Below, in pieces: positions 11,893 to 27,000 of a DNA stretch of 64,000 nucleotides; the stretch's first letter is position 1, and each line of letters begins with the position of its first letter. The position numbers and the translations under genes are program-made. Source of the stretch: an uncultured bacterium (GTDB taxonomy: Bacteria; Zixibacteria; MSB-5A5; CAIYYT01); the NCBI GenBank assembly GCA_903930455.1, contig CAIYYT010000235.1, forward strand, positions 771-64,770. The letters are read 5' to 3'. Under the pieces are notes generated by a model. That model saw only the letters and a program-made list of their open reading frames with translations, made no database searches and was not told the origin of the DNA.

Positions 11893-12832
11893 TAGTGAGA
11901 TCCTCTCTGTGGATCGTCGGACACAAAGTGAGATGTTACCCGAATACTCGGATGGCCGATTTTTCATAAGCCCAGTGTTGGGTTGTTCTGCTCATTGCAG
12001 CTACTGTTATATCTACAGTGAAGGATTTGGGTCCAACGTCTGCAAGAATCCGCTTTCTATTGGGCGACTGATTTCTTGGCTTGAATCTCATGAGCGATTT
12101 CGTCTAGGGCGTAAGGGATCAATACTCTCTGTCGGTGCCTGGGGAGATCCATTTGCTCCTGAGGTTTCTGTTGAGGTGACTCTTGAATTGATTCGCCAAC
12201 TTTCGGCTCTAGGAAATCCCATTCAACTTATTACGAAATACCCTATTACTGAAGATGTACTGGATGCCCTGGCCAAAGTCTCGCTGTATCGGGGCCACTT
12301 GTTGTTTTCAACGTCGATCGTATCCATTACAAACTGGCAATCGATTGATCCGAAAGTATCATCCCCAGAAAATAGATTGAAAATGCTTGCGCGAATGGAA
12401 AACCGCCAAATTCCAACGAACTTGATGATCAAACCATTTCTGCGTGGCATTACTGACATTGACACCGTCATCTTTAAGCGTGAATTGATGCTAAACCGCG
12501 TAACGAGTTGTGTGGTTGGCGTGCTCTATTGGAACGCCAAGATAGCTGAACGAATCTATGGTTCTACTCACGACCATAATACCTTCACGAAGATGCTGAG
12601 GAATCGGATATTGGATCACGGACTCGTCTGTCGACCTGCTTCCATTTACAGAACGTTCTCTGGAGAGGCTATGGATGGGTTTTGTGCTGAGTTGATGGAT
12701 GCTGGTATCCGCGTTTTTAAGAACGCGTCTTGCGTCAGTGCATGGTTGACGGACACAAGACATGTGAGTGGACTAAGGCAATCCGATCCGTTAGGACTCT
12801 GCGTGAATTGCGAAAACGCTGCTTGCCAATAA
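11867..12832 (+). CDS. Radical SAM protein, SplB/COG1533 (DNA photolyase-like) family
   Basis: SPVLGCSAHCSYCYIYS matches the COG1533 CxxxCxxC cluster (PY.GCSHGCIYCYA). An alternative start is ATG 11933. Confidence 0.7.
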   Translation: MKNSAKVRDSEILSVDRRTQSEMLPEYSDGRFFISPVLGCSAHCSYCYIYSEGFGSNVCKNPLSIGRLISWLESHERFRLGRKGSILSVGAWGDPFAPEVSVEVTLELIRQLSALGNPIQLITKYPITEDVLDALAKVSLYRGHLLFSTSIVSITNWQSIDPKVSSPENRLKMLARMENRQIPTNLMIKPFLRGITDIDTVIFKRELMLNRVTSCVVGVLYWNAKIAERIYGSTHDHNTFTKMLRNRILDHGLVCRPASIYRTFSGEAMDGFCAELMDAGIRVFKNASCVSAWLTDTRHVSGLRQSDPLGLCVNCENAACQ

Positions 12833-12901
12833 CTACCGCCTTTGGTATTTTTACGGTTAGAAGGTGAACCGATCACTAAGGACATTTCAAGCAAGAGCTT
12901 T

Positions 12902-13555
12902 ATGCGCAAGACAGATGTGATAAAGAAGACAGTCATTCATGTTCGCAGTCTGCAGCAGCAGGAGAGTACTGGGCACGATTGGTGGCACACCCACAGAGTC
13001 TGGCAGATGGCCAAGAAAATAGGTCGGATAGAGAAAGCCGACCTATTAGTTGTTCAGTTATCTGCGCTGCTGCATGACGTTGCAGACTGGAAATCACACG
13101 AAGGCGACTTCGAAGTTGGTGCCAGGGAGGCACGAACGTGGCTCTCGCGATTCAGTCTTGATCCCAAATGCATTGACCATATCTGCTGGATAGTACAGTC
13201 CATTTCATTCAAAGGTGTTGCCGCCAAACGGAGCGATCTAACGCTCGAAGCGATGGTGGTTCAGGATTCAGATCGATTGGATGCGCTTGGAGCAATCGGA
13301 ATCGCCAGAACATTTGCCTACGGTGGAAGCAAGGGGCGGGCCATATATGATCCAAGTGTTCGTCCAGTGAAGCATAAGACGGTCAAGTCGTATGTCGACA
13401 ATAAGAGTCCATCTATTAACCACTTCTATGAGAAACTTCTGCTTCTGAAGACGCGAATGCATACAGAGACTGCTCGCCGTATTGCTTCGAACCGCGATCA
13501 GATCATTCGTGACTTCTTGAGAGAATTCTACGATGAATGGCGGGGTAGGAAATAA
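12902..13555 (+). CDS. HD-domain phosphohydrolase
   Basis: H..H at WWHTHRV and HD at ALLHDVAD, then DSDRLDALGAIGIAR. The ORF could start earlier at 12842. Confidence 0.75.
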   Translation: MRKTDVIKKTVIHVRSLQQQESTGHDWWHTHRVWQMAKKIGRIEKADLLVVQLSALLHDVADWKSHEGDFEVGAREARTWLSRFSLDPKCIDHICWIVQSISFKGVAAKRSDLTLEAMVVQDSDRLDALGAIGIARTFAYGGSKGRAIYDPSVRPVKHKTVKSYVDNKSPSINHFYEKLLLLKTRMHTETARRIASNRDQIIRDFLREFYDEWRGRK

Positions 13556-13626
13556 ACTCTGATAAGAAATCGTCTCGGCTCACCTCAGATGTGTGCAACA
13601 GTAGGATTCATATATAACCACGCGCA

Positions 13627-14634
13627 TCAATACCGCTGAACAATTTCGCTCCCGCCACCCGGCAGACGAGGGCAGCCCTCATCCGCCGGGCCCGGAGGTT
13701 CCTTAGAGCTAGCATCAGGGTTCTGGTCAGCGCACAGGTGGTGTTCCTGGCGCTGTCGGGAGCGGTAAAAGGAAGGCACAGGCAGCGGGCATGACGATAC
13801 AGGGCCGCCCTGTTCGGAAATGGTTTGCCAATTTGCAGCAAAGAGTTTTTCCGGAGTGCTAAACGAGACCGCAGAGGAATCAGTGCAGGCAATCAGGTCT
13901 GGACACGAGGAGTAGGCACGCAGATTCTGGAGCTTGTGTTTGACATGTTCAAGCCGCTTCTGCGTTGTCGTTACCAGCAGAACTCGAAACGACCGGATAC
14001 CGAATCGTCGTTGGGGAGCTTTCTGCTGCCAGAGCCAGTGGTACCCCGCGCATTTCGCGGCAATGCGTCCCAGATCGGTCGTCCCTCGGTCGATTTCGAG
14101 GAAATAGGTGTATGCGCGCCGTTGATGGTGCAGGGTGAACATAGCGTCAGGGATGATCGGCGTTGTCTGGGTTATTACCGGATATCGCGGCGCCGCAACC
14201 ATCTTCAGTTTCCGCCCCTGCGTCCAGGATGAGAGGTTGAGATCGTTTGCCATGCGCACTGCCAACAGCAGACAGATGCGGAAATCGTTGATCCGTTCGC
14301 TGTGCTCACTGAATGAACCTAGTTTGCTCACTGGGACACGGTCTTGAGATTTAAGGTTAGGCAAAATCCGTTGCCCTCTTCGCGAAAGTGCGTAGAGATA
14401 TTGTGACGATCCCTCGCCGAGCCGCGTCGGTCGTACCACACGAGCCAGCAGGCCGTGCCTCCAGAGTTGCGCAAGTCGCTTGCGCGTTCGGTGGAGCGAC
14501 TGGAAAAACAAATGGCAAACCTGAACAGTTGTGAGCACGCGGTAGTCCCTGAGCGCGCAGAAGAGTTCGCGGTCACGGTCAGTGACTTGAATAGGTCGCA
14601 GCTTGTTCGTCGATGTTTTATTGGGAGACGTCAT
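13627..14634 (-). CDS. Replication-relaxation (Replic_Relax) family protein, second copy
   Basis: FLEIDRGTT motif and an N-terminal wHTH-like region. It is a paralogue of 8277-9161. The C-terminal tail may be over-extended. Confidence 0.6.
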   Translation of the reverse strand: MTSPNKTSTNKLRPIQVTDRDRELFCALRDYRVLTTVQVCHLFFQSLHRTRKRLAQLWRHGLLARVVRPTRLGEGSSQYLYALSRRGQRILPNLKSQDRVPVSKLGSFSEHSERINDFRICLLLAVRMANDLNLSSWTQGRKLKMVAAPRYPVITQTTPIIPDAMFTLHHQRRAYTYFLEIDRGTTDLGRIAAKCAGYHWLWQQKAPQRRFGIRSFRVLLVTTTQKRLEHVKHKLQNLRAYSSCPDLIACTDSSAVSFSTPEKLFAANWQTISEQGGPVSSCPLPVPSFYRSRQRQEHHLCADQNPDASSKEPPGPADEGCPRLPGGGSEIVQRY

Positions 14635-15142
14635 AGGCTGAGAGTTTGCTTTGTTTGGCTATTGCCAGGTATGTGAGCCCCACGGCGACGGCGTCAAACA
14701 TGTTCTGGTAGTATCGCTCGCGCCAACGGCGATTGGAGCCGAAATACGTGCGCAACTCGGGGAATTGTGCGCAGATAGCCTTCGCGATCGCGCGCTTCGT
14801 TGCCCGTCCGTCTCCTGTGACCTCTTTCTTGATAGTGTTGGGTGCGAACTCGTAGACTGTTACACCGTGCCTTCTGGCGATTGCCCTAATCTGTTGAATC
14901 GCGATCATTGCCGGCAGATTCTGTTGAATTTGGGGGAAGTTGTTCGTCGCGATAACAACTATTTCCGGAGTCCTCTCTGTCAGAAGCCGATTCATGGTTT
15001 GCGTGAACACATCTACTGGCCTTCTGTTTGGTCGGCGCATTGATTTCACACCATGATCGACAAGCTCCCTGCCGATAAAGTGCGCAATGCCGATTTCCCG
15101 AAGACCAGGGTCGATGGCAAGTAGGCTAGCTTGGTTCTTCAT
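14618..15142 (-). CDS. RuvC-like Holliday junction resolvase-family nuclease
   Basis: LLAIDPGLREIGIA (D-x-G start), IKKEVTGDGRATKRAIAKAI (compare RuvC KQAVTGYGKADKEQV). Start taken at the internal Met (MKNQASLL); the ORF track begins at 15253. Confidence 0.6.
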   Translation of the reverse strand: MKNQASLLAIDPGLREIGIAHFIGRELVDHGVKSMRRPNRRPVDVFTQTMNRLLTERTPEIVVIATNNFPQIQQNLPAMIAIQQIRAIARRHGVTVYEFAPNTIKKEVTGDGRATKRAIAKAICAQFPELRTYFGSNRRWRERYYQNMFDAVAVGLTYLAIAKQSKLSAYDVSQ

Positions 15143-15452
15143 ATTTGTGAATGAGGTAGATAAATAGAGCGCGGCGAGATTTCTTGATACGCCACGGTGG
15201 CGTCGACTGCGCCGCGCGGAAAGCCCGGTACACGATGGCGTGAGTGTGGGCACTGCAGACCTGACGGTAGAACGATAGACGAACTTCGTCTCCGAACTCT
15301 CTGGCGATTTCCAGCGCGAGCGCGTCAGCCTGAGTTTTGGGGATGAATGGTATTGGTCGAGTACTAGTCATGGGTCTGAGAGGGTTGTGATCGCTGTTTG
15401 GTGAGGATGTCATTACGTATTGAGTCAAAGAGATCGAAGAACAGAATTTCAA
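15126..15452 (-). CDS. Hypothetical small protein
   Basis: ORF only. Start uncertain; internal Met codons are available. Confidence 0.35.
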   Translation of the reverse strand: MKFCSSISLTQYVMTSSPNSDHNPLRPMTSTRPIPFIPKTQADALALEIAREFGDEVRLSFYRQVCSAHTHAIVYRAFRAAQSTPPWRIKKSRRALFIYLIHKYEEPS

Positions 15453-15645
15453 CGGGGCACTTAATGATTGCGGATAGCTTGAGAGCGTTTACCAGCGTAG
15501 GCAGTTTTCGACCCTTTTCCCAATGTGAGAGGTGTGAGACACTTCTTAATCCCACGAGCGGTGCGATCTGACACAGCTTGAGATTCTGCCGTCTGCGATA
15601 GCGACGGATCTGATTCGGGAGGGTTTTGTGTTTGCTCTTTGACAT
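15364..15645 (-). CDS. XRE-family HTH transcriptional regulator
   Basis: QIRRYRRRQNLKLCQIAPLVGLRSVSHLSHWEKGRKLPTLVNALKLSAIIKCPVEILF is a classic HTH_3 pattern. Start taken at the internal Met. A paralogue lies at 20910-21164. Confidence 0.7.
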   Translation of the reverse strand: MSKSKHKTLPNQIRRYRRRQNLKLCQIAPLVGLRSVSHLSHWEKGRKLPTLVNALKLSAIIKCPVEILFFDLFDSIRNDILTKQRSQPSQTHD

Positions 15646-15805
15646 GGATGTAATTGCGTGCGATGTCACTGTATGTGGGGATGAAAATCCGTTCAATTGC
15701 CGAAAGCGGCAACATCGTGTGGATATGAGGGAGGAAAACTGGTGAAACATCCAGTAGAACTGGGCATCCGAACAAAAACCGAACACTGCGAACAAAAAAA
15801 TATCG

Positions 15806-16411
15806 CTACCGCTTGTGCAGGCGTAAAATCGCTGTCACCTTTCCTTGAATCTTCAGGCGCTTCACGAAGATTGGCTTCATGGATGCGTTTGCTGGCTGAA
15901 GGCGGATGCGGGCTTTTTCCTTATACACGCGTTTCAGCGTCGCTGTGTTGTCTTCAAGCAGGGCGACAGCGATTTCACCGTTGTTGACGACTGGCTGGGG
16001 TTTGATGATTACAAGATCACCGTCCATGATGTGATCGTCAATCATGCTGTCCCCTCTAACCTTGAGCGCAAATGCCCCAGGTCTGGCGGCCGACTTTGGC
16101 AATGTTAGCGGATCTTCGGGAATTTGGATTGCCTCAATGGGAGAGCCTGCGGCAATCGCTCCGACCACTGGCACAGATACGAGATTCCCACGGTCAATAG
16201 TATCCTCCAGCAATTGAATCCCTCGCGCTGTCCCGTCAACACGAATCCACCCCTTTCTCTTGAGGGTTGCGAGGTGGTCGTGGACGGTTCCAATTGCAGA
16301 CTTCGTGAGCTTGGTCAAATCGCGGATACTTGGCATGTATCCTCTGAACTTGCTATAGGTCCGAATAGCATCGAGCACCCGCTTTTGCTTGGGGGTGAGA
16401 GGTTGTTCCAT
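15806..16411 (-). CDS. lexA: LexA repressor (S24 peptidase)
   Basis: N-terminal DNA-binding region LTPKQKRVLDAIRTY...GYMPSIRDL. Cleavage site VVGAIAAGSP (Ala-Gly). Catalytic Ser in RGDSM and Lys in ATLKRVYK. Start taken at MEQPL. Confidence 0.85.
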   Translation of the reverse strand: MEQPLTPKQKRVLDAIRTYSKFRGYMPSIRDLTKLTKSAIGTVHDHLATLKRKGWIRVDGTARGIQLLEDTIDRGNLVSVPVVGAIAAGSPIEAIQIPEDPLTLPKSAARPGAFALKVRGDSMIDDHIMDGDLVIIKPQPVVNNGEIAVALLEDNTATLKRVYKEKARIRLQPANASMKPIFVKRLKIQGKVTAILRLHKR

Positions 16412-16555
16412 AGGGAGATTCAGTCTACCGAACGATAGCCGAACGGTCAAGGCGGGGTTATCCACAAGCAATCGCGGCAGTGCCTGAGCGCACCCCGTCG
16501 TTGTCGACGGGATACGCTCACCATGATTCGTTCCGGGTATGGTCCGGCAACGCGA

Positions 16556-17302
16556 CTACTTGAGAAACCAAGTATTGTGCAGGTTCGCAGCGTCAGCCGG
16601 GAGCAGCGTCTCCTCAGTGACCATCTGCGGGAAGGAATCGAAAAGCGACCGCGGAGTGTTTGCGAAAATCCACTCGAAGGTGGCTTTCTTCGTCGGGTTA
16701 TTGGCGGCGTCAACCTCTGTCGTGACGTCGTAGAGGGAGAAGGTGATCGTCTTCGCGGTCACCAGCACTGACTTGGTCGTGTCGCCGCTAAGCTGCGGCA
16801 AGCAGGGTGGCCCCATGATGATCAGGTCGAGCGAGCCCTGCGGCAGGATCACCGCCTTCAAGAGATCATCCTGGGTACGCGTATTCAAGGGCAGGCTCTT
16901 GCCGTCGGCGACGAAGGAAACAAGGCTGCCAGCGAAGCGGAGCACGTGCGTCATGTGGTTGGTGACGTGCAGCTGAAAGGTCAAGCTATCCGGCTTGAAG
17001 AGGTAGCCAGCCGGGTCGTCCGTGATAACGTACTTCACACCGTTTCCGACGCTCACCGAAAACAGTCCTTTCGGCTTCTCCCGTACCGTTTTGTGGTAGA
17101 CAACGTGCCACTCAAAGGGTACAGGCACGAGCTTGATCGTCACCCCATCCTTCGTCTGCTCCCAAGAATAGCCCGCCACGGTGTCGAGGACCACCATCTG
17201 CCCACCGAGCGGAATCTGTTTCGGCGGTTGCTCTTTCTTGCCTCCGAGCAAGAGGAACGCCGAAGTCGCAACAACGACAAGTAGGAGTAGGGACTTCTTC
17301 AT
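16556..17302 (-). CDS. Secreted hypothetical protein
   Basis: Signal peptide MKKSLLLLVVVATSAFLLLGG. No catalytic motif recognised. Confidence 0.55.
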   Translation of the reverse strand: MKKSLLLLVVVATSAFLLLGGKKEQPPKQIPLGGQMVVLDTVAGYSWEQTKDGVTIKLVPVPFEWHVVYHKTVREKPKGLFSVSVGNGVKYVITDDPAGYLFKPDSLTFQLHVTNHMTHVLRFAGSLVSFVADGKSLPLNTRTQDDLLKAVILPQGSLDLIIMGPPCLPQLSGDTTKSVLVTAKTITFSLYDVTTEVDAANNPTKKATFEWIFANTPRSLFDSFPQMVTEETLLPADAANLHNTWFLK

Positions 17303-17399
17303 GCGCGCCTCCCTGCGTCCTGCTTGCGAGACTCGCGTGCGCGGAGTGCCAGCGAACATGCCTTCGGTTCCTGTGCCTGGGTCTGCTCCAACTGTGAGT

Positions 17400-18212
17400 T
17401 CATTCAACCTCCTTCGTGGTTTGTTTCTGCTTCTGCGCTGACGGCTGCACGGAGCACTCCGTCCTGCTACTTATGATTCTTCCGCAATGATGCTGGCGTC
17501 CGGCTAAAGGGATTGTGCCAGTCTGCTGCTGTGGAAATAGTCGCCGCAACGTCACCTCGTAGTTGTGCTGCACGTCGGCGAGACACTCGGTGCCGTACAG
17601 GTCCCACGTCGTCTTCACTGACGCGTGGCCGAGGATCTTCGAGAGCGACTCCACCGATCCGCGAACCTGCTTCCAGTGCCTGGCGAAGCTGTGGCGGAGC
17701 AGGTGGCACGTCACTAATGCGTACTTCGGATTCGGATTGCTCACGCCGGCGCGTACTCCGGCCTGAGCCACGATCCTGTTGACTTGGCGCGCACTGAGCG
17801 CACCACCGGTGCGCGACCGGAAGAGCGTACCTTGCGGTTCCGGCGCAAGGACAACCAGTGCCTCGGCGAGTTCGCGGCGCACCGGGACCTGGCGCGTCTT
17901 ATTCCCTTTTGCGCTTCGAATCACGATCAAGTTCCTCGCTGTATCGACATCACACATCTTCAATGCAGCCGCTTCACAACGCCGCATGCCAGTCTCGACC
18001 AGGAGTTGTATGAGAAGCCGGTCACGCGGACACGACGCTGCCGCGATCAAACGTTCCAGTTCCGCAAGGGAGAGGTGGTACTCCGCGTTCGAGAGCTGGT
18101 GGGTCGCTCTCACGAGCGAACGATTGAAAGGTCTGGTGAACCTGCGGAATACGCCGGTAAGCGACAAAAGCAACCGGCCTATCAAACTACGGGTCGAGGT
18201 CGAGTGTCTCAC
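17400..18212 (-). CDS. Tyrosine recombinase, catalytic domain only (FimB/FimE-like architecture or truncated integrase)
   Basis: HLLRHSFARHWKQVRGSVESLSKILGHASVKTTWDLYG (R..H..R..Y). No core-binding domain. The start codon is GTG at 18210-18212, 3 bp from an inverted repeat. Confidence 0.65.
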   Translation of the reverse strand: MRHSTSTRSLIGRLLLSLTGVFRRFTRPFNRSLVRATHQLSNAEYHLSLAELERLIAAASCPRDRLLIQLLVETGMRRCEAAALKMCDVDTARNLIVIRSAKGNKTRQVPVRRELAEALVVLAPEPQGTLFRSRTGGALSARQVNRIVAQAGVRAGVSNPNPKYALVTCHLLRHSFARHWKQVRGSVESLSKILGHASVKTTWDLYGTECLADVQHNYEVTLRRLFPQQQTGTIPLAGRQHHCGRIISSRTECSVQPSAQKQKQTTKEVE

Positions 18213-18214
18213 TC

Positions 18215-18229
18215 TTGCAGAAGTGGGAC
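18215..18229. repeat. Inverted repeat, left arm (ttgcagaagtgggac)
   Basis: Perfect 15-bp reverse complement of 18426-18440. The 196-bp spacer lies between the two recombinase genes. Confidence 0.8.
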
Positions 18230-18425
18230 ATTGGTTGAAGGGTCTGGGATTCTGTAATGCCGGGGATTTTGCCTGAAGCTGGTTGTTATTCAGATGGATA
18301 GAAGGTTAGGACCGGTGATATTCAGCACACCCTTGACGAACAGTGATGATCTGATAGAGTTGAAGCCAAAGTGGCAAAAGTACCGTAAATGCTTGAAATT
18401 GGAGGAGTTATGCGCAGCTAGAAAC

Positions 18426-18440
18426 GTCCCACTTCTGCAA
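18426..18440. repeat. Inverted repeat, right arm (gtcccacttctgcaa)
   Basis: Perfect reverse complement of 18215-18229. A related direct motif (ggacatt.g..g.ttctgt.aat) follows each arm. Confidence 0.8.
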
Positions 18441-18671
18441 ATGTAGGACATTCGTGGGTTCTGTCAATCGAATTTTCGTACTTTCTGCGAAAGTTTCTCC
18501 TAAAAGATACGTTACAGATGGCAGTCTCTCAACTTCATTGAATTCCGCGGGGCAACTTTTCCATCCTTTTCAATGACCGACGAGTTCGTTTACTCTCAAT
18601 TGAGTTCGAGTAATCTCCCGTTTGTATCACTCGCCCCAATTTGATCTAAGGTTCTCTAAGGTCCCAACCCT

Positions 18672-20462
18672 ATGCAAAGAGCCATTGTCTATTGCCGTGT
18701 CTCGACCGAAGAGCAAGCCGAGGACGGTCACCACTCGCTCGCCGCGCAAGAGTCGCTCTGCCGACGCTGCGCTTCTGAAAAGCAATTTGAGATTGTTGAA
18801 GTTTTCCGCGATCCCGGCAAGAGCGCTACTACGATGAACCGGCCAGGACTGCAAGACGCGCTTGCTCGCTGCCAGTCGGATCATTCTATCAAGGCCGTCT
18901 TCGTACAAGACACAGATCGGCTTGCTCGAAATACAAAGGATCATCTCACTATTCGAGCAATGCTCAAGAAGCACGACGTGCGACTCATTTCGGTATCACA
19001 ACCAATGCTTGAAGATAGCGCCGAAGGCATGATGATTGACACTATCATCGCGAGCGTGAATCAGTTTCAATCTGATATCACTTCCCGCAAGACCATGAAA
19101 GGGCTTGAGGAAAAAGTCAGAAACGGCGGCTGGCCAGCGCTCGCTCCAGTAGGCTACAAGAATGTTGGCGTGGGACCTGAGGGCCAATCCCGAATCGTTG
19201 TCGTTGACAATGAATCGGCTCCTCTCGTGCAAAAACTGTTCCGATCGTATGCAACCGGTAACTATTCCGCGCGAGAACTTAATGACATCTTCTACAAACA
19301 AGGTCTCCGGTCCCGAACCGGAAGGAAGCTCCAAGACAGCAAGATCTTCGACATGCTTGAAAACAAATTCTATCTTGGTGAGGTACGCTGGGGCGGAATC
19401 GTCGCCAAAGGACAACATGAACCATTGATTGATGCCAGTCTATTCGCGGCTGTAAAGGCGGTCTTGATGGCACACGGTGGTAACAGAAGTAGAAAGCGAA
19501 AGCACGATTTCCTACTCCGTGGCTATCTCTTCTGCGGCAGTTGCGGCGGGCGGCTAATTGGCGAGAAGCATATTCTGAAGGGAGTAGCCTACTATCGTTG
19601 TCACAAGCGCGGCGGCTGTGAACCGTTGTGTTCAGCCCCTGAACTGGAATCAGAAGTTGCTGACCTATTCAGTCATTTGCAGCCTTCTCCTGGGCTCCTC
19701 AAGGCAACGGAGACAGCCTTGCGGGCACGCGCTAATGCTCATAAGAGTAACTTTGAAGCCGAGCGATCTTCGCTTCTGAAGCGAAAAGCTGTTGTTGATA
19801 CAAAGCTGCACAAGCTGGAAAGCAAATGGCTTGACGGGCTTCTTGATGATGCTGATTTCAAGAGGCTCCGCGTCGATCTTAAGAAACTGCAATCGGATAT
19901 GGAGAACCAAATTGCTGGTATGGAATCGAAAAGATCACTGGACTATGATGCCCTCGCAGAAGTTGTTGCCTTCGCACGCGATCTTGGGAACTCATACTCA
20001 AGAATCCCAGATCATCTCAAGAGATTGTTGCTGAAGTTTGCTTGGGAAAGACTTGAGGTTGCCAATAGGCAAATCACAGTGGCTCTCCCGACGATGCTGT
20101 TCCGTAGTCTTAGCAATTTTGAGGAAGGCTCTCCTCGGGGAACACAGAAACCCGTCCAATATGAACGGGCTTCTATGCAAGGGGGTGACTGTCACCCCAC
20201 ACGGTTCCCAATGAACCAAGACTTGGTTCGATTAGGCACCGAGTGGGGTCGCAAGCCAACACATAATCGTCCAGAGAAAACGCAAGAAGTTCCTTTTGCA
20301 GGCAACATTTCCGACCTCATGCAGCTCCTTGATTCTGATCCAGGCTACATTCAGCATGTCCTGACTCTCTTTGCGGAGATTCGGGATGGGATGAAGGCGT
20401 GGAAGGAAGGTTTGAATTCTTCCGATCCTGTCTCTGTCGATGCCAAATCCATTGCTCGATGA
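18672..20462 (+). CDS. Large serine recombinase (resolvase/invertase N-terminal domain, recombinase domain and zinc ribbon)
   Basis: Catalytic N-terminus AIVYCRVSTEEQ, a recombinase domain, and a zinc-ribbon (YLFCGSCGG...YYRCHKRGGC) followed by a coiled-coil. Confidence 0.85.
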   Translation: MQRAIVYCRVSTEEQAEDGHHSLAAQESLCRRCASEKQFEIVEVFRDPGKSATTMNRPGLQDALARCQSDHSIKAVFVQDTDRLARNTKDHLTIRAMLKKHDVRLISVSQPMLEDSAEGMMIDTIIASVNQFQSDITSRKTMKGLEEKVRNGGWPALAPVGYKNVGVGPEGQSRIVVVDNESAPLVQKLFRSYATGNYSARELNDIFYKQGLRSRTGRKLQDSKIFDMLENKFYLGEVRWGGIVAKGQHEPLIDASLFAAVKAVLMAHGGNRSRKRKHDFLLRGYLFCGSCGGRLIGEKHILKGVAYYRCHKRGGCEPLCSAPELESEVADLFSHLQPSPGLLKATETALRARANAHKSNFEAERSSLLKRKAVVDTKLHKLESKWLDGLLDDADFKRLRVDLKKLQSDMENQIAGMESKRSLDYDALAEVVAFARDLGNSYSRIPDHLKRLLLKFAWERLEVANRQITVALPTMLFRSLSNFEEGSPRGTQKPVQYERASMQGGDCHPTRFPMNQDLVRLGTEWGRKPTHNRPEKTQEVPFAGNISDLMQLLDSDPGYIQHVLTLFAEIRDGMKAWKEGLNSSDPVSVDAKSIAR

Positions 20463-20652
20463 TATCGGCCAACTGCTCTGCCCCGCGTTGGAGGATTGAC
20501 TCATCAGATTCGATGTTCTCAATTCCCAGCATGTGGGGATTGTAACCAACGCTCGAATATTTGAAAGGGAGGAATAGTTACCGATTGAGGCAAGTGATGG
20601 GGATAACAAAGGGTTTGACGGAATTTCTCCTCTTCGCTACCCTAAGTAAGCT

Positions 20653-20909: not shown

Positions 20910-21164
20910 TCAGTAGGCCCAGCGCGTGGGACATGGATGGAAGTCAGGGTAACGTCTAGCCGGCAGCTTCGCCATCTGTTTGCGAACCTCTTTTCGGATT
21001 TCTTTGAATTGCTCCAAGAAAAGGATTTCTACGGGACAGCCGAGGGCGGCGGAAATGGCCAAAGCTGATTCGAGTAGCGGTGTGACATTGCCATGTTCCC
21101 ACTTGCTAACGGAAATTTGCCCTCGACCCACAATCGAAGCGAGTTCCGTGGAGCGGAGGAACAT
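20910..21164 (-). CDS. XRE-family HTH transcriptional regulator (paralogue of 15364-15645)
   Basis: LASIVGRGQISVSKWEHGNVTPLLESALAISAALGCPVEILF shares the CPVEILF tail with the other copy. Confidence 0.65.
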   Translation of the reverse strand: MFLRSTELASIVGRGQISVSKWEHGNVTPLLESALAISAALGCPVEILFLEQFKEIRKEVRKQMAKLPARRYPDFHPCPTRWAY

Positions 21165-21268
21165 GCGGCGACGATAGCACTTGATAGAGTTCGGGAAACA
21201 CCTGTTGGTCGTACGAAGCATAATTATAGAGTATTCGTTAATTCGAGATCACTGACGGGCCTGGTGAT

Positions 21269-22222
21269 TCATCTCACACGTCCAGTAGAAAGAAACAGTT
21301 GGAGATGCGTAGCGAAGTCCCAAACAGCTAAACGGTCTTCAGTGTTCATCCCAAGTGTCTTGAAGACGATGACCTCTGTGAGGTCCTCGAAGAATCTCAT
21401 ATATTCATCAACTCCCCAATCAAGCGAGGCATAAGGACTACTCACTGGGAGCAACTTCATCCAGGGTTCCGCGTACGGTCGGTCAATGGGTAGCTGCCCG
21501 TTGTGCGCAAGCTGATTCCGAAGCACATAGAGAATATTCTTGGATAGTCCGTTTTCCTTGTGAGTAAGAAAGATGGTCTTATTAATCGCGCCAGGCCAAA
21601 AGTGTTCCAGAAGTTTGGCTACGATTTCGTGAAGATTGTTGCTTTCTTTCTGAAATATCCTCGTATAAAGAAATTCCCAAATGACAAAATAAGCAAGTAC
21701 GCGCGATTCGGAGTTACCAACGTTGCTCGAATTGAGGAGCATCCTGATATGAAACCCATTCTTGAACTTAGCGCACCACGCTTGATCTTGCAGCATACCA
21801 ATTGCGTCAGAACAATCTTCGGCCAACTGTCGCTTGTCGTGGCTCACCATACGAAGGTGGTTTGCTGCTGCGACGGGAAAATCTCGATCCTCCCACCGCC
21901 TGGAATGCAATACCCAGTTAGCACCTGTTAGTACAGACCCAATCATGAGTATGTCGTGCAGTAACTTGGCCTTTCTATATTTGTCTGGAGCCCAGTAATA
22001 GCGACGGTTACAGTTAATAATCGCATCCTGCTGCTTACCGTGCCAGACTACATAGGCGTTTCGTCTGATCTTACGATTGTCGCGAGAGGCCATTATCGAT
22101 GTGTAGACGCGTCCAGATTGTTCTGGCTTGGCAAGGGAATGAAAGGTGTATCCGACAACAGAAAACGGTTGAAAGAAAGAGTTACTGCTGCCGACTAGTA
22201 CATTACACAAGTATTGTTTCAT
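21269..22222 (-). CDS. Hypothetical protein, possible Abi/HEPN-like
   Basis: LRNQLAHNG gives an Rx4H HEPN-type motif. It lies adjacent to an XRE regulator. Weak, motif-level only. Confidence 0.3.
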   Translation of the reverse strand: MKQYLCNVLVGSSNSFFQPFSVVGYTFHSLAKPEQSGRVYTSIMASRDNRKIRRNAYVVWHGKQQDAIINCNRRYYWAPDKYRKAKLLHDILMIGSVLTGANWVLHSRRWEDRDFPVAAANHLRMVSHDKRQLAEDCSDAIGMLQDQAWCAKFKNGFHIRMLLNSSNVGNSESRVLAYFVIWEFLYTRIFQKESNNLHEIVAKLLEHFWPGAINKTIFLTHKENGLSKNILYVLRNQLAHNGQLPIDRPYAEPWMKLLPVSSPYASLDWGVDEYMRFFEDLTEVIVFKTLGMNTEDRLAVWDFATHLQLFLSTGRVR

Positions 22223-22693
22223 AGCCGAGTCCGATTAGTTGGATGACTGAAACCTCTATAATATAATAGGTTAAGAATTAGCTGACCGCATTTGCAGGTA
22301 TTATTCTCTCCTTGTTTTTGAAACAAATCAAGCTCCACATTGAAGCTTGTATTCAGAAAGTAATACCCAATTGACACGATCTGCAACAGGAGTACGTCTA
22401 GATCGCAGAGAGAAATTGTTGTGAAGGAAGGAAATAACACCAATATATTATGTTGGTATTAGTCGATAGGGACTGACAACCGAGGCTCTCCACGAGGAGA
22501 TCAAGTCCGGCACCAGCAAGGGATGTGGCAAATGCTCATCAACCTAGTAGCGGTAAGAGGCCTCCGCTGTCTCGACACTTCCCGTGGACCACTGGAGTTA
22601 AGTATCCCTGACGGCCATCGGCCTGGCAGCGAGTACTAGTCATAATTGACTATGAGAATGGCATTTGTATATTAACTTGGAAGCGGAGGAGCA

Positions 22694-23536
22694 ATGTTGA
22701 GGAAGCCAAAGTTAGCAGTCACGATGAAAAGGAAATTGCTGCAGATCTTAGTGGCGATTGCGAAGCGTTGGAAGGAAATCTCACTGTTGATATGCGTTCT
22801 GGGTGCTCTGCTCAGCTACGCGATACCACCCTTGAGAAAGCATACTAATGCATTCCTCGTGCTTTGCGCAATTGTGGTCGTGCAATTGGTCCTCGATATT
22901 AGGCAAATTGTCTCGAAATCACCGTTGCCCGCGAAGTATACTTCCTTACATGAGGCGATTACAGACATTGACACGGCTATGAGAAAGGCGATGGCTAAGA
23001 AACGCAAGAAGCCATTAGAAATTCGTATAGTTGCAGGACGCACGATGACCGTTGCAAACATGCTGAAGACACTGGGCGAGGATGTAAGAGTCGGCAGGCT
23101 TCTTTGCCGAGAAACGAAGGTCATGCTGTTTTGTGTGGATCCAAGCTTTGCAATGAATCTGGATTTGTCGATTGTAAGAGATAAGGATGCATTCCAAAGG
23201 AATATGGGCATCTACGCGGCCACAATCGAATCCAATTGTAAGACGCTGGCGCAATTCAACTTGGACGAAGAGTGCAAGAGACAGGGACTCTCTTTTGAGG
23301 TCGTCCATTACAAATTTATGCCGACGTTTTTCTCATTTCTAATTGGGAATGAGTTGTTGTATTGGGGAAGCTATACGTGGGATGATGTTCGCCAAGACTT
23401 TGATGGGCCAATTAACCCCTGCTTTCGAGTTGACCACAGCAACGAATTCTTTGTGGACACTTACGAATGGCAGTATAATAGAACTGAGTTTTTGTGGTCG
23501 CTTGCCAAAAGAGAAGAAGAAACGCTCAGTGCATAG
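22694..23536 (+). CDS. 2TM membrane protein with C-terminal soluble domain (distant paralogue of 11119-11892)
   Basis: Two N-terminal TM helices. The soluble domain shares the spacing of hydrophobic/Gly/Asp-Pro patterns with the first copy. Confidence 0.5.
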   Translation: MLRKPKLAVTMKRKLLQILVAIAKRWKEISLLICVLGALLSYAIPPLRKHTNAFLVLCAIVVVQLVLDIRQIVSKSPLPAKYTSLHEAITDIDTAMRKAMAKKRKKPLEIRIVAGRTMTVANMLKTLGEDVRVGRLLCRETKVMLFCVDPSFAMNLDLSIVRDKDAFQRNMGIYAATIESNCKTLAQFNLDEECKRQGLSFEVVHYKFMPTFFSFLIGNELLYWGSYTWDDVRQDFDGPINPCFRVDHSNEFFVDTYEWQYNRTEFLWSLAKREEETLSA

Positions 23537-23553
23537 AATTCGAATCCACCTAT

Positions 23554-24471
23554 ATGACAGGTAAAATCGACTTGAGATCAGTCTTACCCTACGACTCTTC
23601 AAGCCAACGTCGATTCCGCTCATCAACCGGAATCGAAAAGGCTGCAGTCGGGAGCACCTACTGGCAGAGTCGTGCTAAACACTACGAGGAATACTCCTCT
23701 TGGTGTCGAGATCTTGGTCTTTTTGCCAAATGCACAGAACCTTTGAAAAGCTTGGGTGAAGCATCTCGATGCCTCGATCTCGGAGGAGGAACTGGTTGGG
23801 TCGCGCGTCATGACAATGAACTGACGGGTCGACAATGGACCGTCTTGGATCAGTGCGCAGACTATGGGAAGTACATTCGCCCCCCAATCACTTTTGTGGT
23901 CGGTGATGCGCACAGAACACGATTTCCGAATTCTTCTTTCGATTTCATACTAGCGAGGTCACTCCTTCACTATGTGGACTGCCCACGCGTACTTGCAGAA
24001 GCTCGTCGACTTCTTTGCTCAAAAGGAACACTAGTCGTTGCACAGAAGATATTAGCGTACAGGGGAAGCGAGTCTGAATGGTTCAGCGAACTTGATCGGC
24101 TGAAGCGCCCCGAACCCACGAAGGCTTGGAGTGCTAAGCAACTCTTGATTGCTATTACCTCGGCAGGATACATTCTTCACAAAGTATCATTCTTGACAAT
24201 GCCTCGCAAAATAATGGTACGAGAGTGGTTCGAATCCGGCGGTAAGCTCTCAAACCCCAATCAACATAGGATAAACAAACTATTCCGTACGGCTCCGAAA
24301 TCGGTAAGAAATTACCTGAAATTGAACTTCACTGACGACGAAATATCTTATCTGGAACAATGGATGGTAGTTGCCTGTCAGCCATTGACTAGCGAAGCCG
24401 TATACAAGGCTACTAAGAGTAGACTTCCTCGCGGGCGCACGCACGGCGTATTGCATGGGCTGCAACTGTAA
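23554..24471 (+). CDS. Class I SAM-dependent methyltransferase
   Basis: Motif I is CLDLGGGTGWV and the post-I acidic residue VLDQ. Motif IV-like is FDFILARSLLHYV. Confidence 0.7.
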   Translation: MTGKIDLRSVLPYDSSSQRRFRSSTGIEKAAVGSTYWQSRAKHYEEYSSWCRDLGLFAKCTEPLKSLGEASRCLDLGGGTGWVARHDNELTGRQWTVLDQCADYGKYIRPPITFVVGDAHRTRFPNSSFDFILARSLLHYVDCPRVLAEARRLLCSKGTLVVAQKILAYRGSESEWFSELDRLKRPEPTKAWSAKQLLIAITSAGYILHKVSFLTMPRKIMVREWFESGGKLSNPNQHRINKLFRTAPKSVRNYLKLNFTDDEISYLEQWMVVACQPLTSEAVYKATKSRLPRGRTHGVLHGLQL

Positions 24472-24582
24472 TGCTTCTGGCAATAGTGGCATTGCTTTCG
24501 CTCGCTTGACTGGTGACGATGCCCCGGTTGATCTGTCAGTTGTGTTGTGGAAAAAACCAGACGTCTCCATTGCGTTGTCACC

Positions 24583-26124
24583 TCACCGCGCGGTGTAAGA
24601 TAAATGAATGTCTGCAGTAACCTGCTTACCCGACAGAATCGCGTCTCGGTTATCAAAGATGAGGTAGTACTTCGCCGGTTTCGGGAATTTGTAGTCGAGG
24701 TCAAAGAGCGTCACCTTGTCGGAACCAAAGAGCTCGGTAGCCTTGTTGCCATTCGCCCAATTCACGTAGTTCACCTCGTCCATGATGTGGAATTTGATGT
24801 CGTTGCGTGAGCCTCCGGAAGCGAGGAATCTTCCTTTTAGCGTCGGGTTCTTGGTTGTCGCCTGAGCGAGGTCCAATATCCGTGCCACGTATTGTCCGGC
24901 TCCGATATTCATGGATTCCACCCAGACCGGCATCGTGAGCTGCGGCGGCGGCAAAGCAGACACGTAATTCTTGATCCAGTCGAACTGATCGGCGTCTACA
25001 GTCAAGCCATCTGCATCGATTTCGGACAACTCAACCGAAACGTTCTCCTGTCGCTCACTGGGTTTCGGGTGCGTAGCTCCCCATTGGTCGAGAGTACTAC
25101 CGCTTGATCCTGGAAGCTTCTTGAAGGTGTCGAATAGGGTGAGCATACCGTGGGGATCAAATCCAGCCTGATACATATTGTAGAAGCCAAGGAGGTCTGC
25201 TTCCCGTTCATCATCGCGGCTGTACTTCATCAGGGCAAAGAACGCAACTGCACCCCCAGCTTCCTTAAGGCTCTGCACCCATCTGTTGTGAGCCTGGTTG
25301 AGAAGGATGCCGCTTGCTTCGATGATGCCCGTGTAGAGGAGTCGCTTGGAGAGCTGCTGGCTCGTATGGTTCCCGACGTTGTGCCCGATCTCATGAGCCA
25401 GAACTCCTGCAAGCTCAGCCTCTGATCCAAGCTTTTCCAGGAGACCTCGGTAGATGAATATCATGCCACCGCCAACGGTGAAAGCGTTGACCTCGTCGCT
25501 ATTGATGGCTTTGCAGGCATAGACGGTTCCGGGTTGCTTGCTGAACTTGCCGATGTACTTGGTTAGGCTGTCCAGGTAGCCATCAACGATGGGATTGCTG
25601 AGCATTGGTGCCTGTTGCTCGATTTCGGCGGCGCTGACTTCTGCCAGTTGAAAGATCGTGGAGGAATCCAACAAGTTGAATCCCGATGCGTAGTCGAGAC
25701 GGTCAACGTTCAATACACTTGGGTTGAAGCAGAAAGACTTGATTGAAGCAACGGGAATAGATCGCTTGTCTCCGCGTACGGTCGAGCTCACCTGAAACTT
25801 TTTGCGATCCATCTTTGAAATCAGGGCCGGAATTTCTGAGCCGCTTCTGTATCGAATTCGGTCGCCAGCTATTGAGTCGGTTGGACAATTGCAGTCCAAC
25901 AAAGTAGTATCGAACGCAATCGACGAGATCTTGGCAATACGCCACGTCTCTTTTTGATCATTGCTTTTGAATTCAAACCGGAATTTCTTGTCGTCGTATT
26001 TGATGAATTCGTAGACACCGCTAATGTTGTCTCTGAAGGACACTCGTACAAACAATTTGTCCTTCGCAGCACAGTGATTCGCAGCAGAGACAAGAACTAG
26101 CCCTATGATTATTGGGATTCGCAT
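24583..26124 (-). CDS. M48-family zinc metallopeptidase (secreted/periplasmic)
   Basis: Signal peptide MRIPIIIGLVLVSAANHCAA. HEIGHNVGNH HExxH motif and downstream SRDDEREADLLG (Glu ligand). Confidence 0.75.
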   Translation of the reverse strand: MRIPIIIGLVLVSAANHCAAKDKLFVRVSFRDNISGVYEFIKYDDKKFRFEFKSNDQKETWRIAKISSIAFDTTLLDCNCPTDSIAGDRIRYRSGSEIPALISKMDRKKFQVSSTVRGDKRSIPVASIKSFCFNPSVLNVDRLDYASGFNLLDSSTIFQLAEVSAAEIEQQAPMLSNPIVDGYLDSLTKYIGKFSKQPGTVYACKAINSDEVNAFTVGGGMIFIYRGLLEKLGSEAELAGVLAHEIGHNVGNHTSQQLSKRLLYTGIIEASGILLNQAHNRWVQSLKEAGGAVAFFALMKYSRDDEREADLLGFYNMYQAGFDPHGMLTLFDTFKKLPGSSGSTLDQWGATHPKPSERQENVSVELSEIDADGLTVDADQFDWIKNYVSALPPPQLTMPVWVESMNIGAGQYVARILDLAQATTKNPTLKGRFLASGGSRNDIKFHIMDEVNYVNWANGNKATELFGSDKVTLFDLDYKFPKPAKYYLIFDNRDAILSGKQVTADIHLSYTAR

Positions 26125-26232
26125 GCTGTTATACTCCCCTAGATTGGTATATGATCTTCCCACGACAAAGTGTCGTAAGTCAGGAGCCCTGGCCTCTTGA
26201 CCTACAAGACCGTACTATCAATCCACCTCCAG

Positions 26233-26751
26233 TCATCCGCCATATGTAAAGAACCACGCCTGTAGCTTCTTGTCCGGCCCTATGCCACAAATGCAGTGGC
26301 CGCCATATTTGTTTCTGAGGAGTTCACCATATATGAAGTAAGTTGGCGGATTATCCGCTACAACTGGTATGATAAGAACCGTGCCAGTGTCAGGTTGGAT
26401 TAAGCCGTTCTTGTTTCGTTGCAAGTCCGACAGAAGGTAGATTTTCGTGTAATCAAGATTCACGCCTTGAAAGACTATTCTCCCATTCGCCTTAAGCACT
26501 GGCCACGTGACCGCATCCCCTAAACGCTCAGTTCCCTTGAACCCCCCATTGTGCTGCGGAATTAGACCAAGAAACTCTGATTCGGCTTGGTAGTCGAAAC
26601 CCTGAAGGAGAACATACGGCTCGCCCGGGTTCTTTACAAATACTCCGACCATTGGCGGTGGTCCGTCCCCGCAGCCAAGTATTGTAGCAGTCAGGATCGC
26701 AGCCGCCAGAAGGCTTGTGCTGCTTCGACAAGATATGAGTAAACGTAGCAT
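26233..26751 (-). CDS. Lipoprotein, hypothetical
   Basis: Lipobox LLAAAILTATILGCG. Confidence 0.55.
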   Translation of the reverse strand: MLRLLISCRSSTSLLAAAILTATILGCGDGPPPMVGVFVKNPGEPYVLLQGFDYQAESEFLGLIPQHNGGFKGTERLGDAVTWPVLKANGRIVFQGVNLDYTKIYLLSDLQRNKNGLIQPDTGTVLIIPVVADNPPTYFIYGELLRNKYGGHCICGIGPDKKLQAWFFTYGG

Positions 26752-27000
26752 AGCTCACCCTCCATATGGCGTTTTCGGCGGTTTAACCTTCCCACGAAAG
26801 CGTGGACACATGCACAAAATAGGAAGCCGCTTTTTCGAAGTCAAGCGGGCTTTTGTAGCCCTACGTCATAGATCAGCAGTCCTGTGTTCTTGACCTCAAA
26901 ACACCATCGCCAAAGATGATTTTATGATCTCGTCAAAATTGTGAGTAGGATAGGTGTGAGAATTCACGGATACCGCCTCACCATTGAATTCACTTAGCAT

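Follow-up and report, generated by a model that had tools for sequence, protein, structure and literature searches.

Two recombinase genes lie back to back in the region described here, which is part of a 64-kb stretch of DNA that we refer to as the window. One encodes a short tyrosine recombinase on the minus strand and the other a large serine recombinase on the plus strand, and between them are a perfect inverted repeat, two candidate promoters, and a conserved mini-ORF. These features are listed below by position in the window.

16556–17302, minus strand: 248-aa protein with a signal peptide, N-terminus MKKSLLLLVVVATSAFLLLGG (gene calls on L001–L003)
17299–17403, minus strand: 34-aa ORF downstream of the tyrosine recombinase, overlapping/abutting (gene calls on L001–L003)
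17400–18212, minus strand: short Xer-like tyrosine recombinase (PF00589, 9.9e-27, residues 50–206)
18205–18230: proximal core site P, TGTCTCAC-TCTTGCAGAA-GTGGGACA (dyad scan 15/16)
18221–18434: candidate invertible segment, with the two crossover regions as approximate bounds (its L253 homologue aligns in reverse-complement form only)
18333–18360, plus strand: candidate internal promoter P_in, TTGACG-16-TGaTAGAGT (promoter scan 9/12, with upstream TG)
18401–18421, plus strand: Shine-Dalgarno GGAGGAG and mini-ORF ATG CGC AGC TAG (M-R-S-stop), conserved in 10 lineages
18425–18450: distal core site D, CGTCCCAC-TTCTGCAAAT-GTAGGACA (dyad scan 14/16)
18440–18467, minus strand: candidate fixed external promoter P_out, TTGACA-16-TACATT (promoter scan 10/12)
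18672–20462, plus strand: large serine recombinase, 596 aa (Resolvase, Recombinase, and Zn_ribbon_recom domains)

A large serine recombinase gene beside the segment had already been recognized in a first-pass annotation of this DNA, and its domain content agrees with that assignment; the identical protein is encoded on at least 19 contigs. In relatives, variable proteins that carry a Por_Secre_tail, FlgD_ig, or Fib_succ_major domain occupy the place of the genes at 16556–17403. Genes for LexA-like, RuvC-like, and Replic_Relax proteins are located further downstream of the tyrosine recombinase, whose operon probably extends into them.

The short tyrosine recombinase

Counted from its GTG start codon, the tyrosine recombinase has 270 aa; gene callers elsewhere picked 255, 195, or 174 aa. 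Pfam searches identified the PF00589 catalytic domain only, as the first-pass annotation had proposed, with neither PF02899 nor PF13495 found. The AlphaFold model (pLDDT 83) consists of a single N-terminal helix and the catalytic domain, with the core-binding domain missing, and its closest structural matches are XerA, XerH, and IntI4. The catalytic residues (R, K, HxxR, H, and Y) are invariant among 29 family members. A likeness to FimB/FimE, also suggested in the first-pass annotation, holds for the size of the protein and fails for its family: the FimB/FimE models of NCBIfam (NF007370 and NF007371), with cut-offs of 221 and 222 bits, returned scores of 29.4 and 32. Xer models were the best NCBIfam matches, yet their scores were far under cut-off (105 vs. 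220 for XerA, 89 vs. 335 for XerC), as they were for every NCBIfam Xer model. The tyrosine recombinase is Xer-like and stands outside both the FimB/FimE and the Xer chromosome-dimer-resolution families.

Among 5.8 billion proteins, this rare family accounts for about 70 clusters. The short homologues, about 70 in number and 183–257 aa in length, have a common N-terminus, and the possibility of an integrase truncated by insertion at the repeat was ruled out because these homologues are equally short. We also rejected the idea that inversion supplies an N-terminal domain or a start codon, since the ORF is extended in neither orientation; an ATG on the segment runs into an in-frame stop. Among IMG/VR viral contigs, no family member above 36% identity was found save for a partial match on L175 (75 residues, 52%), and the family was not found among PLSDB plasmids or INPHARED phages. 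Protein-pattern scans of genomes and metagenomes were swamped by XerC/D and gave only three and seven family loci, respectively. The hosts appear to be FCB-group bacteria outside the Bacteroidota (Zixibacteria, Ignavibacteria, and Eisenbacteria MAGs).

Paired dyad sites at the recombinase start

The perfect 15-bp inverted repeat reported in the first-pass annotation was matched exactly, with TTGCAGAAGTGGGAC at 18215–18229 and its reverse complement at 18426–18440 enclosing 196 bp (18230–18425). The left arm is near the GTG start of the tyrosine recombinase, as had been stated, at a distance of two bases instead of three. Similarity between the arms reaches outward to 32 nt at 81% (18201–18232 and 18423–18454). 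The expected number of perfect inverted repeats of at least 15 bp within 500 bp is about 0.03 per 64 kb (64000 x 500 / 4^15), and a scan of the whole window (12-nt seed, within 1.5 kb) identified three inverted repeats, of which this pair is the longest. Terminal repeats of a MITE or insertion sequence were considered and rejected: the flanking direct repeats do not match (cactc vs. atgta), each arm is single-copy in the window, and in every lineage the segment keeps its syntenic place in the module.

Both arms belong to 26-bp dyad sites with the consensus TGTCYCAY-N10-GTGRGAC, for which the dyad scan had a background of 18 matches scoring at least 12 per 1.03 Mb. Sites P and D, separated by 220 bp, are in opposite orientation, and the outer arm of P includes the GTG start codon of the recombinase. 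The putative 6-bp crossover region of P is TTGCAG (18215–18220), and that of D is its reverse complement, CTGCAA (18435–18440); the dyad centre is the palindromic dinucleotide GC. A related motif that the first-pass annotation had noted after each arm, GGACATT, is retained as a recombinase half-site, being the inner arm of the left site and the outer arm of the right site. On the right, TTCTGTCAAT corresponds, read as the reverse complement, to the -35 element of the conserved outward-lying candidate promoter (18467–18440, minus strand); its left-hand counterpart shows no conservation among relatives.

Comparison with related contigs, a check proposed in the first-pass annotation, identified the inverted site pair in at least 13 lineages: the window together with L164, L165, L166/L167, L250, L168, L251/L252, L169, L084, L253, L255/L256, L085, and L006. 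Their tyrosine recombinases are 49–82% identical, in all 13 the recombinase gene starts at a pair of dyads with a spacing of 199–225 bp, and the equivalent of the proximal site overlaps that start in each. The central 6 bp (spacer positions 3–8) vary between lineages (TTGCAG, TGGCAG, TTCCAG, and TTGGCA), while D is the reverse complement of P at these positions in nine of the nine lineages tabulated. Such a centre, matched between the two sites and variable between lineages, is characteristic of the crossover region of tyrosine recombinases. The outer arms of D and P differ from each other consistently. In the Eisenbacteria-type L004 and L086, one site-like sequence was found near the gene start (GTCCCACT.T.CCAGGAAG), and a convincing partner was not.

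A divergent large serine recombinase adjoins the candidate switch in L164–L169, L250, L251, L084, and L006. That such a gene always adjoins would be expected if the repeats were attL/attR halves or an attP of the serine recombinase, or if this enzyme were itself the invertase; att half-sites had been the alternative offered in the first-pass annotation, and serine recombinase sites are also imperfect dyads. The adjoining serine recombinases are, however, non-orthologous between lineages and only 23–26% identical where the sites are identical. L164 has the same core sites as the window with a 23%-identical serine recombinase, whereas L168 has different cores with a 51%-identical one. By these sequence comparisons, the core sites follow the phylogeny of the tyrosine recombinase and not the adjoining serine recombinases. 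The sites also flank neither the serine recombinase gene nor any element, enclosing instead about 200 bp of non-coding DNA, and a GC dyad centre would presumably give a serine recombinase no polarity. We therefore attach very little probability to a role for the serine recombinase at these sites and regard the tyrosine recombinase as their probable partner.

Candidate promoters and the inverted segment of L253

The promoter scan independently found the internal promoter that the first-pass annotation had read as facing the serine recombinase (TTGACG-16-TAGAGT). P_in points to site D and the serine recombinase gene in the window, and its position and polarity relative to the mini-ORF are kept in relatives. 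Because the same scan found no plus-strand promoter between D and the serine recombinase ATG, we take P_in as the putative promoter of this gene in the present orientation. The mini-ORF lies at the inner end of the segment and reads outward through D; a Shine-Dalgarno sequence, an ATG, one to three codons, and a stop occupy the same place in 10 lineages, with the TAG stop changed to TAA in L251. P_out is directed into the segment, toward the tyrosine recombinase, and its -10 element overlaps the outer arm of D. It scores 11/12 in L253 and L166, its TTGAC and TGTCCTA are invariant in an alignment of seven lineages, and it is also visible in L250, L251, L085, and L006. Both candidate promoters are conserved matches to consensus only, in uncultured FCB-group hosts for which promoter rules are not established.

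The position of P_out bears on a possible RNA-level function, in which the mRNA leader of the tyrosine recombinase folds into a long-range stem that sequesters the start codon, and the concerted changes reflect base pairing. In a transcript spanning both arms, the arm beside the GTG start would be paired, and concerted changes would be expected from an RNA stem as well. Yet with the P_out -10 element in the outer arm of D, the transcript would be expected to begin no earlier than the core and to miss most of one arm, and the similarity between the arms continues into the outer arm that is not transcribed. A stem would also leave the internal dyad symmetry of each site unexplained, a search of 17900–18900 matched no Rfam family, and the arrangement in L253 described below would have no explanation. 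An RNA stem thus seems a very improbable basis for the repeats, as compared with recombination sites.

Twelve of the 13 lineages are oriented as the window (orientation A), and in L253 the bracketed segment alone is inverted. To align with the window, L255, and L164, the 185-bp interior of L253 has to be reverse-complemented (score 86 vs. -6), while the flanks are collinear, with P_out plus D and P plus the recombinase gene aligning forward at 76–83%. The breakpoints fall exactly within the repeats. As a result, P_in points to the tyrosine recombinase in L253, and P_in and P_out, which are convergent in the window, are in tandem. The mini-ORF always travels with the segment, and L253 is the only lineage in which it adjoins P, facing the tyrosine recombinase. 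The evidence from L253 comes from one metagenomic contig, and the contrast in orientation is one between lineages and not inside one population. The proposal in the first-pass annotation that promoter inversion toggles recombinase expression fits well with the paired sites in 13 lineages, the concerted 6 bp, the conserved promoter, and the flipped segment of L253.

The three further assemblies of the window's element (L001–L003) are identical and all in orientation A. An antisense ORF diagnostic of orientation A was found on 16 contigs by exact look-up, and the nine ORF variants predicted for the opposite orientation (B) were absent from the collection by the same look-up. Distant homologues with M..KRPVSGK N-termini had been candidates for orientation B and were ruled out, as L168, L169, and L251 are all in A; the resemblance of their N-termini arises because the repeat extends inward. 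The predominance of A among lineages indicates either that the switch is heavily biased or that inversion is rare.

This predominance, seen in every assembly of the window's element as well, would also fit a fixed regulatory architecture in which the sites are operators, P_out and the translation start of the recombinase are repressed by the recombinase itself or by a different dimeric protein (perhaps via looping of the 220 bp), and the segment is normally static, with L253 a rare evolutionary accident. D on the P_out -10 element and P on the start codon are classic operator positions. Operators, however, would have no need of an identical asymmetric centre, inverted polarity, or concerted change, and the catalytic residues of the recombinase are all invariant. 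The breakpoints of L253 lie precisely in the repeats, and homologous recombination would be inefficient on a repeat of just 15 bp. We thus consider a purely operator function unlikely, and site-specific inversion of the segment the better account of these features.

The sites could instead serve intermolecular or resolution-type recombination, such as Xer-like multimer resolution of a circular element or the exchange of serine-recombinase modules between elements, with inversion as a by-product. In favour of this are the Xer-like nature of the recombinase and the dif-like build of the sites, whose arms surround a 6-bp centre. Homology between lineages stops just upstream of P_out, the adjoining serine recombinases are non-orthologous, GC content falls at P, and contigs L255 and L256 terminate 2 nt before D. 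Against this, one site per replicon suffices for resolution systems, whereas here there are two inverted sites with a conserved spacing of about 220 bp, and what changes is the polarity of the promoter and mini-ORF that they enclose. Tyrosine recombinases acting on paired inverted sites of one molecule produce inversion. Resolution or exchange as the main role of the sites appears distinctly improbable to us, more so than the operator function.

A proposed promoter switch on a mobile element

We consider it probable, from the sequence comparisons above, that the locus is an invertible promoter switch driven by the tyrosine recombinase and carried on an integrative or conjugative-type mobile element. 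As in known invertons, there is an inverted site pair with an identical crossover region, an internal candidate promoter that changes direction, and an occurrence of both orientations in nature. The short Xer-like recombinase would bind the inverted 26-bp dyads P and D, 220 bp apart, and strand exchange inside the identical asymmetric 6-bp centre (TTGCAG) would flip the segment of about 200 bp. That the adjoining tyrosine recombinase is the invertase is suggested by adjacency and co-evolution. The flipping segment would bring with it the sigma70-type P_in and, about 40 nt downstream, a strong Shine-Dalgarno sequence and the 3-codon mini-ORF. In orientation A, as in the window and 11 further lineages, P_in would read through D into the large serine recombinase gene, convergent with P_out, which would read across the segment to the tyrosine recombinase. 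In orientation B (L253), P_in and the Shine-Dalgarno/mini-ORF would stand in tandem with P_out straight before the tyrosine recombinase operon, and the serine recombinase would lose P_in. Orientation A may accordingly correspond to serine recombinase on and tyrosine-recombinase operon low, with the reverse in B, and the segment may switch in this way inside populations. A strong bias to A could arise if B raises recombinase expression and thereby resets itself.

More tentatively, these elements together could form a self-resetting bistable switch in the life cycle of the mobile element, a reading that we regard as possible and rather less than even in likelihood. In the common state, the flipped promoter would drive the large serine recombinase, for maintenance or integration functions. 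In the rare state, transcription of the tyrosine recombinase operon would continue into the secreted/T9SS protein, LexA-like, RuvC-like, and relaxase (Replic_Relax) genes, activating replication or transfer in a subpopulation, and the raised recombinase expression would then flip the switch back. The Shine-Dalgarno sequence with its 2–3-codon mini-ORF might act as a portable translational element that swaps partners on inversion. If the invertible switch itself is confirmed, a mobile element would set its own state by DNA inversion, and the recombinase and site pair would be a small orthogonal system for synthetic biology, with natural specificity variants in the 6-bp core.

Invertible promoters as such are well known. 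Distinct here are a miniature Xer-like recombinase family, a location on mobile elements of uncultured FCB-group bacteria, a promoter that apparently toggles between two targets, a large serine recombinase and the operon of the tyrosine recombinase itself, with replication/transfer genes beyond, and a compact anatomy of two 26-bp sites, two promoters, and one mini-ORF. A limited search of the full-text literature found no description of the recombinase family or of the module.

The closest parallels in layout are fimS with FimB/FimE (type 1 fimbriae of E. coli) and mrp with MrpI (Proteus mirabilis). These systems likewise have a short tyrosine recombinase without an N-terminal core-binding domain, whose gene adjoins a promoter-bearing invertible segment of 200–300 bp, and a strong bias to one orientation (here across lineages); as for mrpI, the recombinase gene and the target gene are on opposite sides of the switch. 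Unlike them, the recombinase described here is Xer-like (29–32 bits vs. FimB/FimE cut-offs of 221–222), and its sites are complete dyads of 26 bp around a 6-bp centre, where those systems have 9-bp inverted repeats accompanied by half-sites on the flanks. The start codon of the recombinase falls in the proximal site, the distal site is overlapped by a second, fixed candidate promoter, and a Shine-Dalgarno sequence and mini-ORF move with the segment. The far-side gene is a large serine recombinase, and the module is on a mobile element.

In both sequence and structure, the catalytic domain is most similar to those of the Xer systems (XerC/D, XerA, XerH, and XerS), and dif-type sites also have inverted arms around a 6-bp central region. 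In contrast to Xer, with one dif site per replicon, the present recombinase has no N-terminal core-binding domain, scores under every NCBIfam Xer cut-off, and is encoded on a mobile element beside its own two inverted sites, 220 bp apart. Small promoter-bearing invertible segments are also found in the Bacteroidales (Tsr, Mpi) and in the RecV switches of Clostridioides difficile. Those invertons are often beside a recombinase gene and control surface or secreted proteins. They differ from the present locus in recombinase family and in hosts, which here are Zixibacteria-, Ignavibacteria-, and Eisenbacteria-like MAGs, and the target on one side here would be a mobile-element recombinase gene. 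As a point of similarity, a signal-peptide or T9SS-type protein is encoded after the recombinase at this locus.

Two dyad sites beside a short tyrosine recombinase

We recovered the main parts of the arrangement that the first-pass annotation had described: a perfect 15-bp inverted repeat around 196 bp, a catalytic-domain-only tyrosine recombinase, an internal TTGACG promoter, and a large serine recombinase gene beside the segment. The GTG start does adjoin the left arm, at a measured 2 nt and not the 3 bp first given. Sites were scored with a half-site scan and promoters were located with a promoter scan.

Features of the proposed switch region
17400-18212, minus strand: tyrosine recombinase ORF (GTG start, 270 aa, PF00589 as sole domain)
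18205-18230: site P, the proximal core site, at the tyrosine recombinase start; TGTCTCAC-TCTTGCAGAA-GTGGGACA, dyad score 15/16
18333-18360, plus strand: P_in, promoter inside the segment; TTGACG-16-TAGAGT with an upstream TG
18401-18421: Shine-Dalgarno GGAGGAG and mini-ORF ATG CGC AGC TAG, about 40 nt downstream of P_in
18425-18450: site D, the distal core site, on the serine recombinase side; CGTCCCAC-TTCTGCAAAT-GTAGGACA, dyad score 14/16
18467-18440, minus strand: P_out, promoter outside the segment; TTGACA-16-TACATT
18672-20462, plus strand: large serine recombinase (Resolvase, Recombinase and Zn_ribbon_recom domains)

The left arm, TTGCAGAAGTGGGAC, spans 18215-18229 and the right arm, its exact reverse complement, spans 18426-18440; each occurs once in the 64-kb window. 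A simple calculation puts the chance expectation in 64 kb at about 0.03 for 15-bp inverted repeats at most 500 bp apart, and a whole-window scan with a 12-nt seed found only three short-range inverted repeats, of which this pair is the longest. Extended outward, the similarity of the arms spans 32 nt in all (81%), and each arm is part of a 26-bp dyad; the background of the half-site scan was 18 matches scoring at least 12 in 1.03 Mb of unrelated loci. Tyrosine-recombinase core sites, for instance dif, loxP and FRT, are known to consist of inverted arms around an identical 6-bp centre. The centres of P and D are asymmetric and opposite in polarity, so recombination between them by a tyrosine recombinase would invert the intervening DNA.

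The tyrosine recombinase is a member of a short family and not a fragment. In a search of 5.8 billion proteins, all 69 matches at E ≤6e-34 were 183-257 aa long with PF00589 only, followed by a gap in E-value before ordinary XerC/D-like proteins at about 1e-15. The catalytic residues (R77/R78, K102, H170-x-x-R173, H196, Y206) were invariant in a 29-member alignment. In the AlphaFold model (pLDDT 83) a single N-terminal helix (residues 8-26) is joined by a linker to the catalytic domain, and a core-binding domain is absent. Searches of the PDB by sequence and by fold returned XerA, XerH and IntI4, and the nearest NCBIfam models, XerA and XerC, scored far under every cut-off. The FimB/FimE likeness suggested earlier does not extend beyond size, as the models for these invertases gave 29-32 bits against cut-offs of 221-222. 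No relatives were found in sequenced plasmids, phages or IMG/VR.

Conservation and ownership of the sites

Homologous loci were obtained through exact-protein look-up and pattern scans. Dyads paired 199-225 bp apart were found in the window and in the loci of relatives L164, L165, L166/L167, L250, L168, L251/L252, L169, L084, L253, L255/L256, L085 and L006, with recombinases 49-82% identical to that of the window and the proximal dyad overlapping the recombinase start in every lineage. Spacer positions 3-8 of D matched the reverse complement of P in 9/9 tabulated lineages, while the core itself differs among lineages (TTGCAG, TGGCAG, TTCCAG, TTGGCA, with distinct cores in L085 and L006). For the five lineages nearest the window, the 7-bp inner arm beside the core is also the same in D and P, as GTGGGAC or GTGAGAC depending on the lineage; in the four more distant lineages the inner arm of D is unlike that of P. 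The outer arms of D and P differ consistently across the nine.

A large serine recombinase gene adjoins divergently at nearly all switch loci, and the first-pass annotation had offered, as an alternative, that the repeats are att half-sites of a serine-recombinase element. These adjoining serine recombinases are not orthologous between lineages. That of the window is 51% identical to its counterpart in L168 but only 23-26% identical to those in L164, L165, L166 and L250, where the tyrosine recombinases are 60-75% identical and the sites essentially identical to those of the window. Since the sites are kept with the tyrosine recombinase and not with the serine recombinase, we rejected the att-site reading; by sequence comparison, P and D belong to the tyrosine recombinase.

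A 17-nt inverted repeat (94%) was also seen, with CAACCGGTAACTATTCC (19252-19268) inside the serine recombinase gene and GGAATAGTTACCGATTG (20571-20587) 110 bp beyond its stop codon; this may be chance. Five lineages carry a 52-67-aa ORF between the switch and a second type of serine recombinase (L164 2890-3060, L165 1605-1796, L169 5551-5709, L251 5437-5640, L253 1738-1929), which is absent from the window and L168. Its translations look alike by eye, unaligned, in several lineages (e.g., MPIQQRHIEELKRIY... in L164) and matched nothing in Pfam or NCBIfam; the ORF might encode a regulator or a recombination directionality factor.

Inversion between lineages and a proposed promoter switch

The relative L253 (JGI 3300038466; recombinase 77% identical) differs in the segment. 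Both its flanks align in the forward sense at 71-83%: the upstream one, which holds P_out and D, with the window, L164 and L165; the downstream one, which holds P and the gene, with these three and L255. To align its 185-bp interior with any of the other lineages, the reverse complement has to be taken (score against the window 86, versus -6 forward), and the change of register lies within the repeats. The alignments indicate that the segment has been inverted between lineages, which bears out the promoter-inversion reading of the first-pass annotation at that level. Site-specific inversion is the likely cause, because general recombination would be inefficient across a repeat of only 15 bp. 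We also weighed a fixed operator pair, a role in resolution or module exchange, sites of the serine recombinase, and an RNA stem (no Rfam family matches the switch region). No single one of these explains at once why an asymmetric core changes in concert, why each site is a dyad and why the segment is inverted in L253.

The window's arrangement (orientation A, with P_in toward the serine recombinase gene) is common to 12 of the 13 lineages, L253 being the exception (orientation B). Three further assemblies of the window's element are identical and in orientation A. An antisense ORF diagnostic of this orientation was found on 16 contigs, and exact look-up found none of the nine ORF variants that orientation B should produce. 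The switch is therefore strongly biased or rarely used, with both orientations known from comparison between lineages. Two contigs from different samples (L255 1-30, L256 1-30) end 2 nt before D, and another (L254 1-20) begins within the segment; these ends may be assembly-graph breaks from orientation or module heterogeneity, or could be coincidence.

The promoter scan gave three matches, against 0.7 expected from shuffles. P_in is conserved in place and polarity among relatives. The -10 of P_out overlaps the outer arm of D; its TTGAC and TGTCCTA are invariant in seven lineages, and it is recognisable too in L250, L251, L253, L085 and L006. P_in and P_out converge in the window; in L253 they stand in tandem, both directed toward the tyrosine recombinase. 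No promoter on the serine recombinase strand was found between D and the gene in the window, L166 or L253. Ten lineages have a Shine-Dalgarno and a 1-3-codon ORF at the equivalent place (MRS, MGS, MGR or MR; the stop is TAA instead of TAG in L251). In L253 this mini-ORF is immediately ahead of P and the recombinase start. Once inverted, the mini-ORF has its stop in the recombinase reading frame, 7 codons ahead of the GTG.

We infer every expression step of the following scheme. The recombinase would invert the segment through crossover in the 6-bp centre. In orientation A, P_in and the mini-ORF would face the serine recombinase, with P_in opposed to P_out; in orientation B, P_in and the Shine-Dalgarno/mini-ORF would stand in tandem with P_out before the recombinase operon, and the serine recombinase would lose P_in. 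Recombinase binding at D should additionally repress P_out. More recombinase in B would make B short-lived, which would explain the bias toward A. Invertible promoters as a kind are already known; the literature searched gave no description of this recombinase family or site type, of the design with two promoters and a mini-ORF, or of the pairing with a serine recombinase on a mobile element.

The surrounding mobile element

The element appears to begin at a tRNA-Met and to extend to about 44.7 kb.

Features of the element
711-786: tRNA-Met, immediately before the integrase
864-1814, plus strand: full-length tyrosine integrase (SAM-like and catalytic domains)
8277-9161 and 13627-14634: Replic_Relax genes
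9158-10792 and 43403-44680: TraG/TrwB-like coupling proteins

The tRNA-Met and integrase (711-1814) are probably the integration end of the ~44-kb element containing the switch, which, with the two recombinases at the switch, thus encodes three recombinases. The tyrosine recombinase gene overlaps or abuts genes downstream: in the window a 34-aa ORF and then a 248-aa protein with a signal peptide, in relatives variable proteins with Por_Secre_tail, FlgD_ig or Fib_succ_major domains. Further on, the same strand carries a LexA-like S24 repressor, a RuvC-like nuclease, Replic_Relax and, after an interruption by three opposite-strand genes (11098-13555), a TraG/TrwB-like protein, a backbone common to the lineages. 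The window's element showed no complete type IV secretion system. Backbone genes are partly duplicated (8277-16471 and 40680-44680), and a DUF932 gene also occurs with the RuvC-like gene and the LexA-like S24 repressor.

GC content, about 60% at 17-18 kb, drops to about 50% at site P of the switch (~18200), and between-lineage homology stops just upstream of P_out, past which the serine recombinases are non-orthologous; together these mark the switch as the border of a module. A defence or cargo island lies on the right-hand side of the serine recombinase (20910-31552 and 37114-40251), with an HTH_3 paralogue, a methyltransferase, an M48 peptidase, an HNH protein, AbiEii and its partner, and AIPR; further on comes a 1045-aa SNF2-helicase/N6-methylase fusion.

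Where relatives have a named host, it is a Zixibacteria, Ignavibacteria or Eisenbacteria MAG. A GH17-like protein at 32071-34032 has a Por_Secre_tail (T9SS sorting) domain, which, with the T9SS-tail proteins of relatives, points to an FCB-group host. A nucleotide-metabolism cluster (2925-6897: nucleoside 2-deoxyribosyltransferase, PNP_UDP phosphorylase, HisG-like and thymidylate-synthase-like proteins) could serve the element as a module for DNA base modification; in L250, DCD, HMUDK_hel and ThyA adjoin the serine recombinase.
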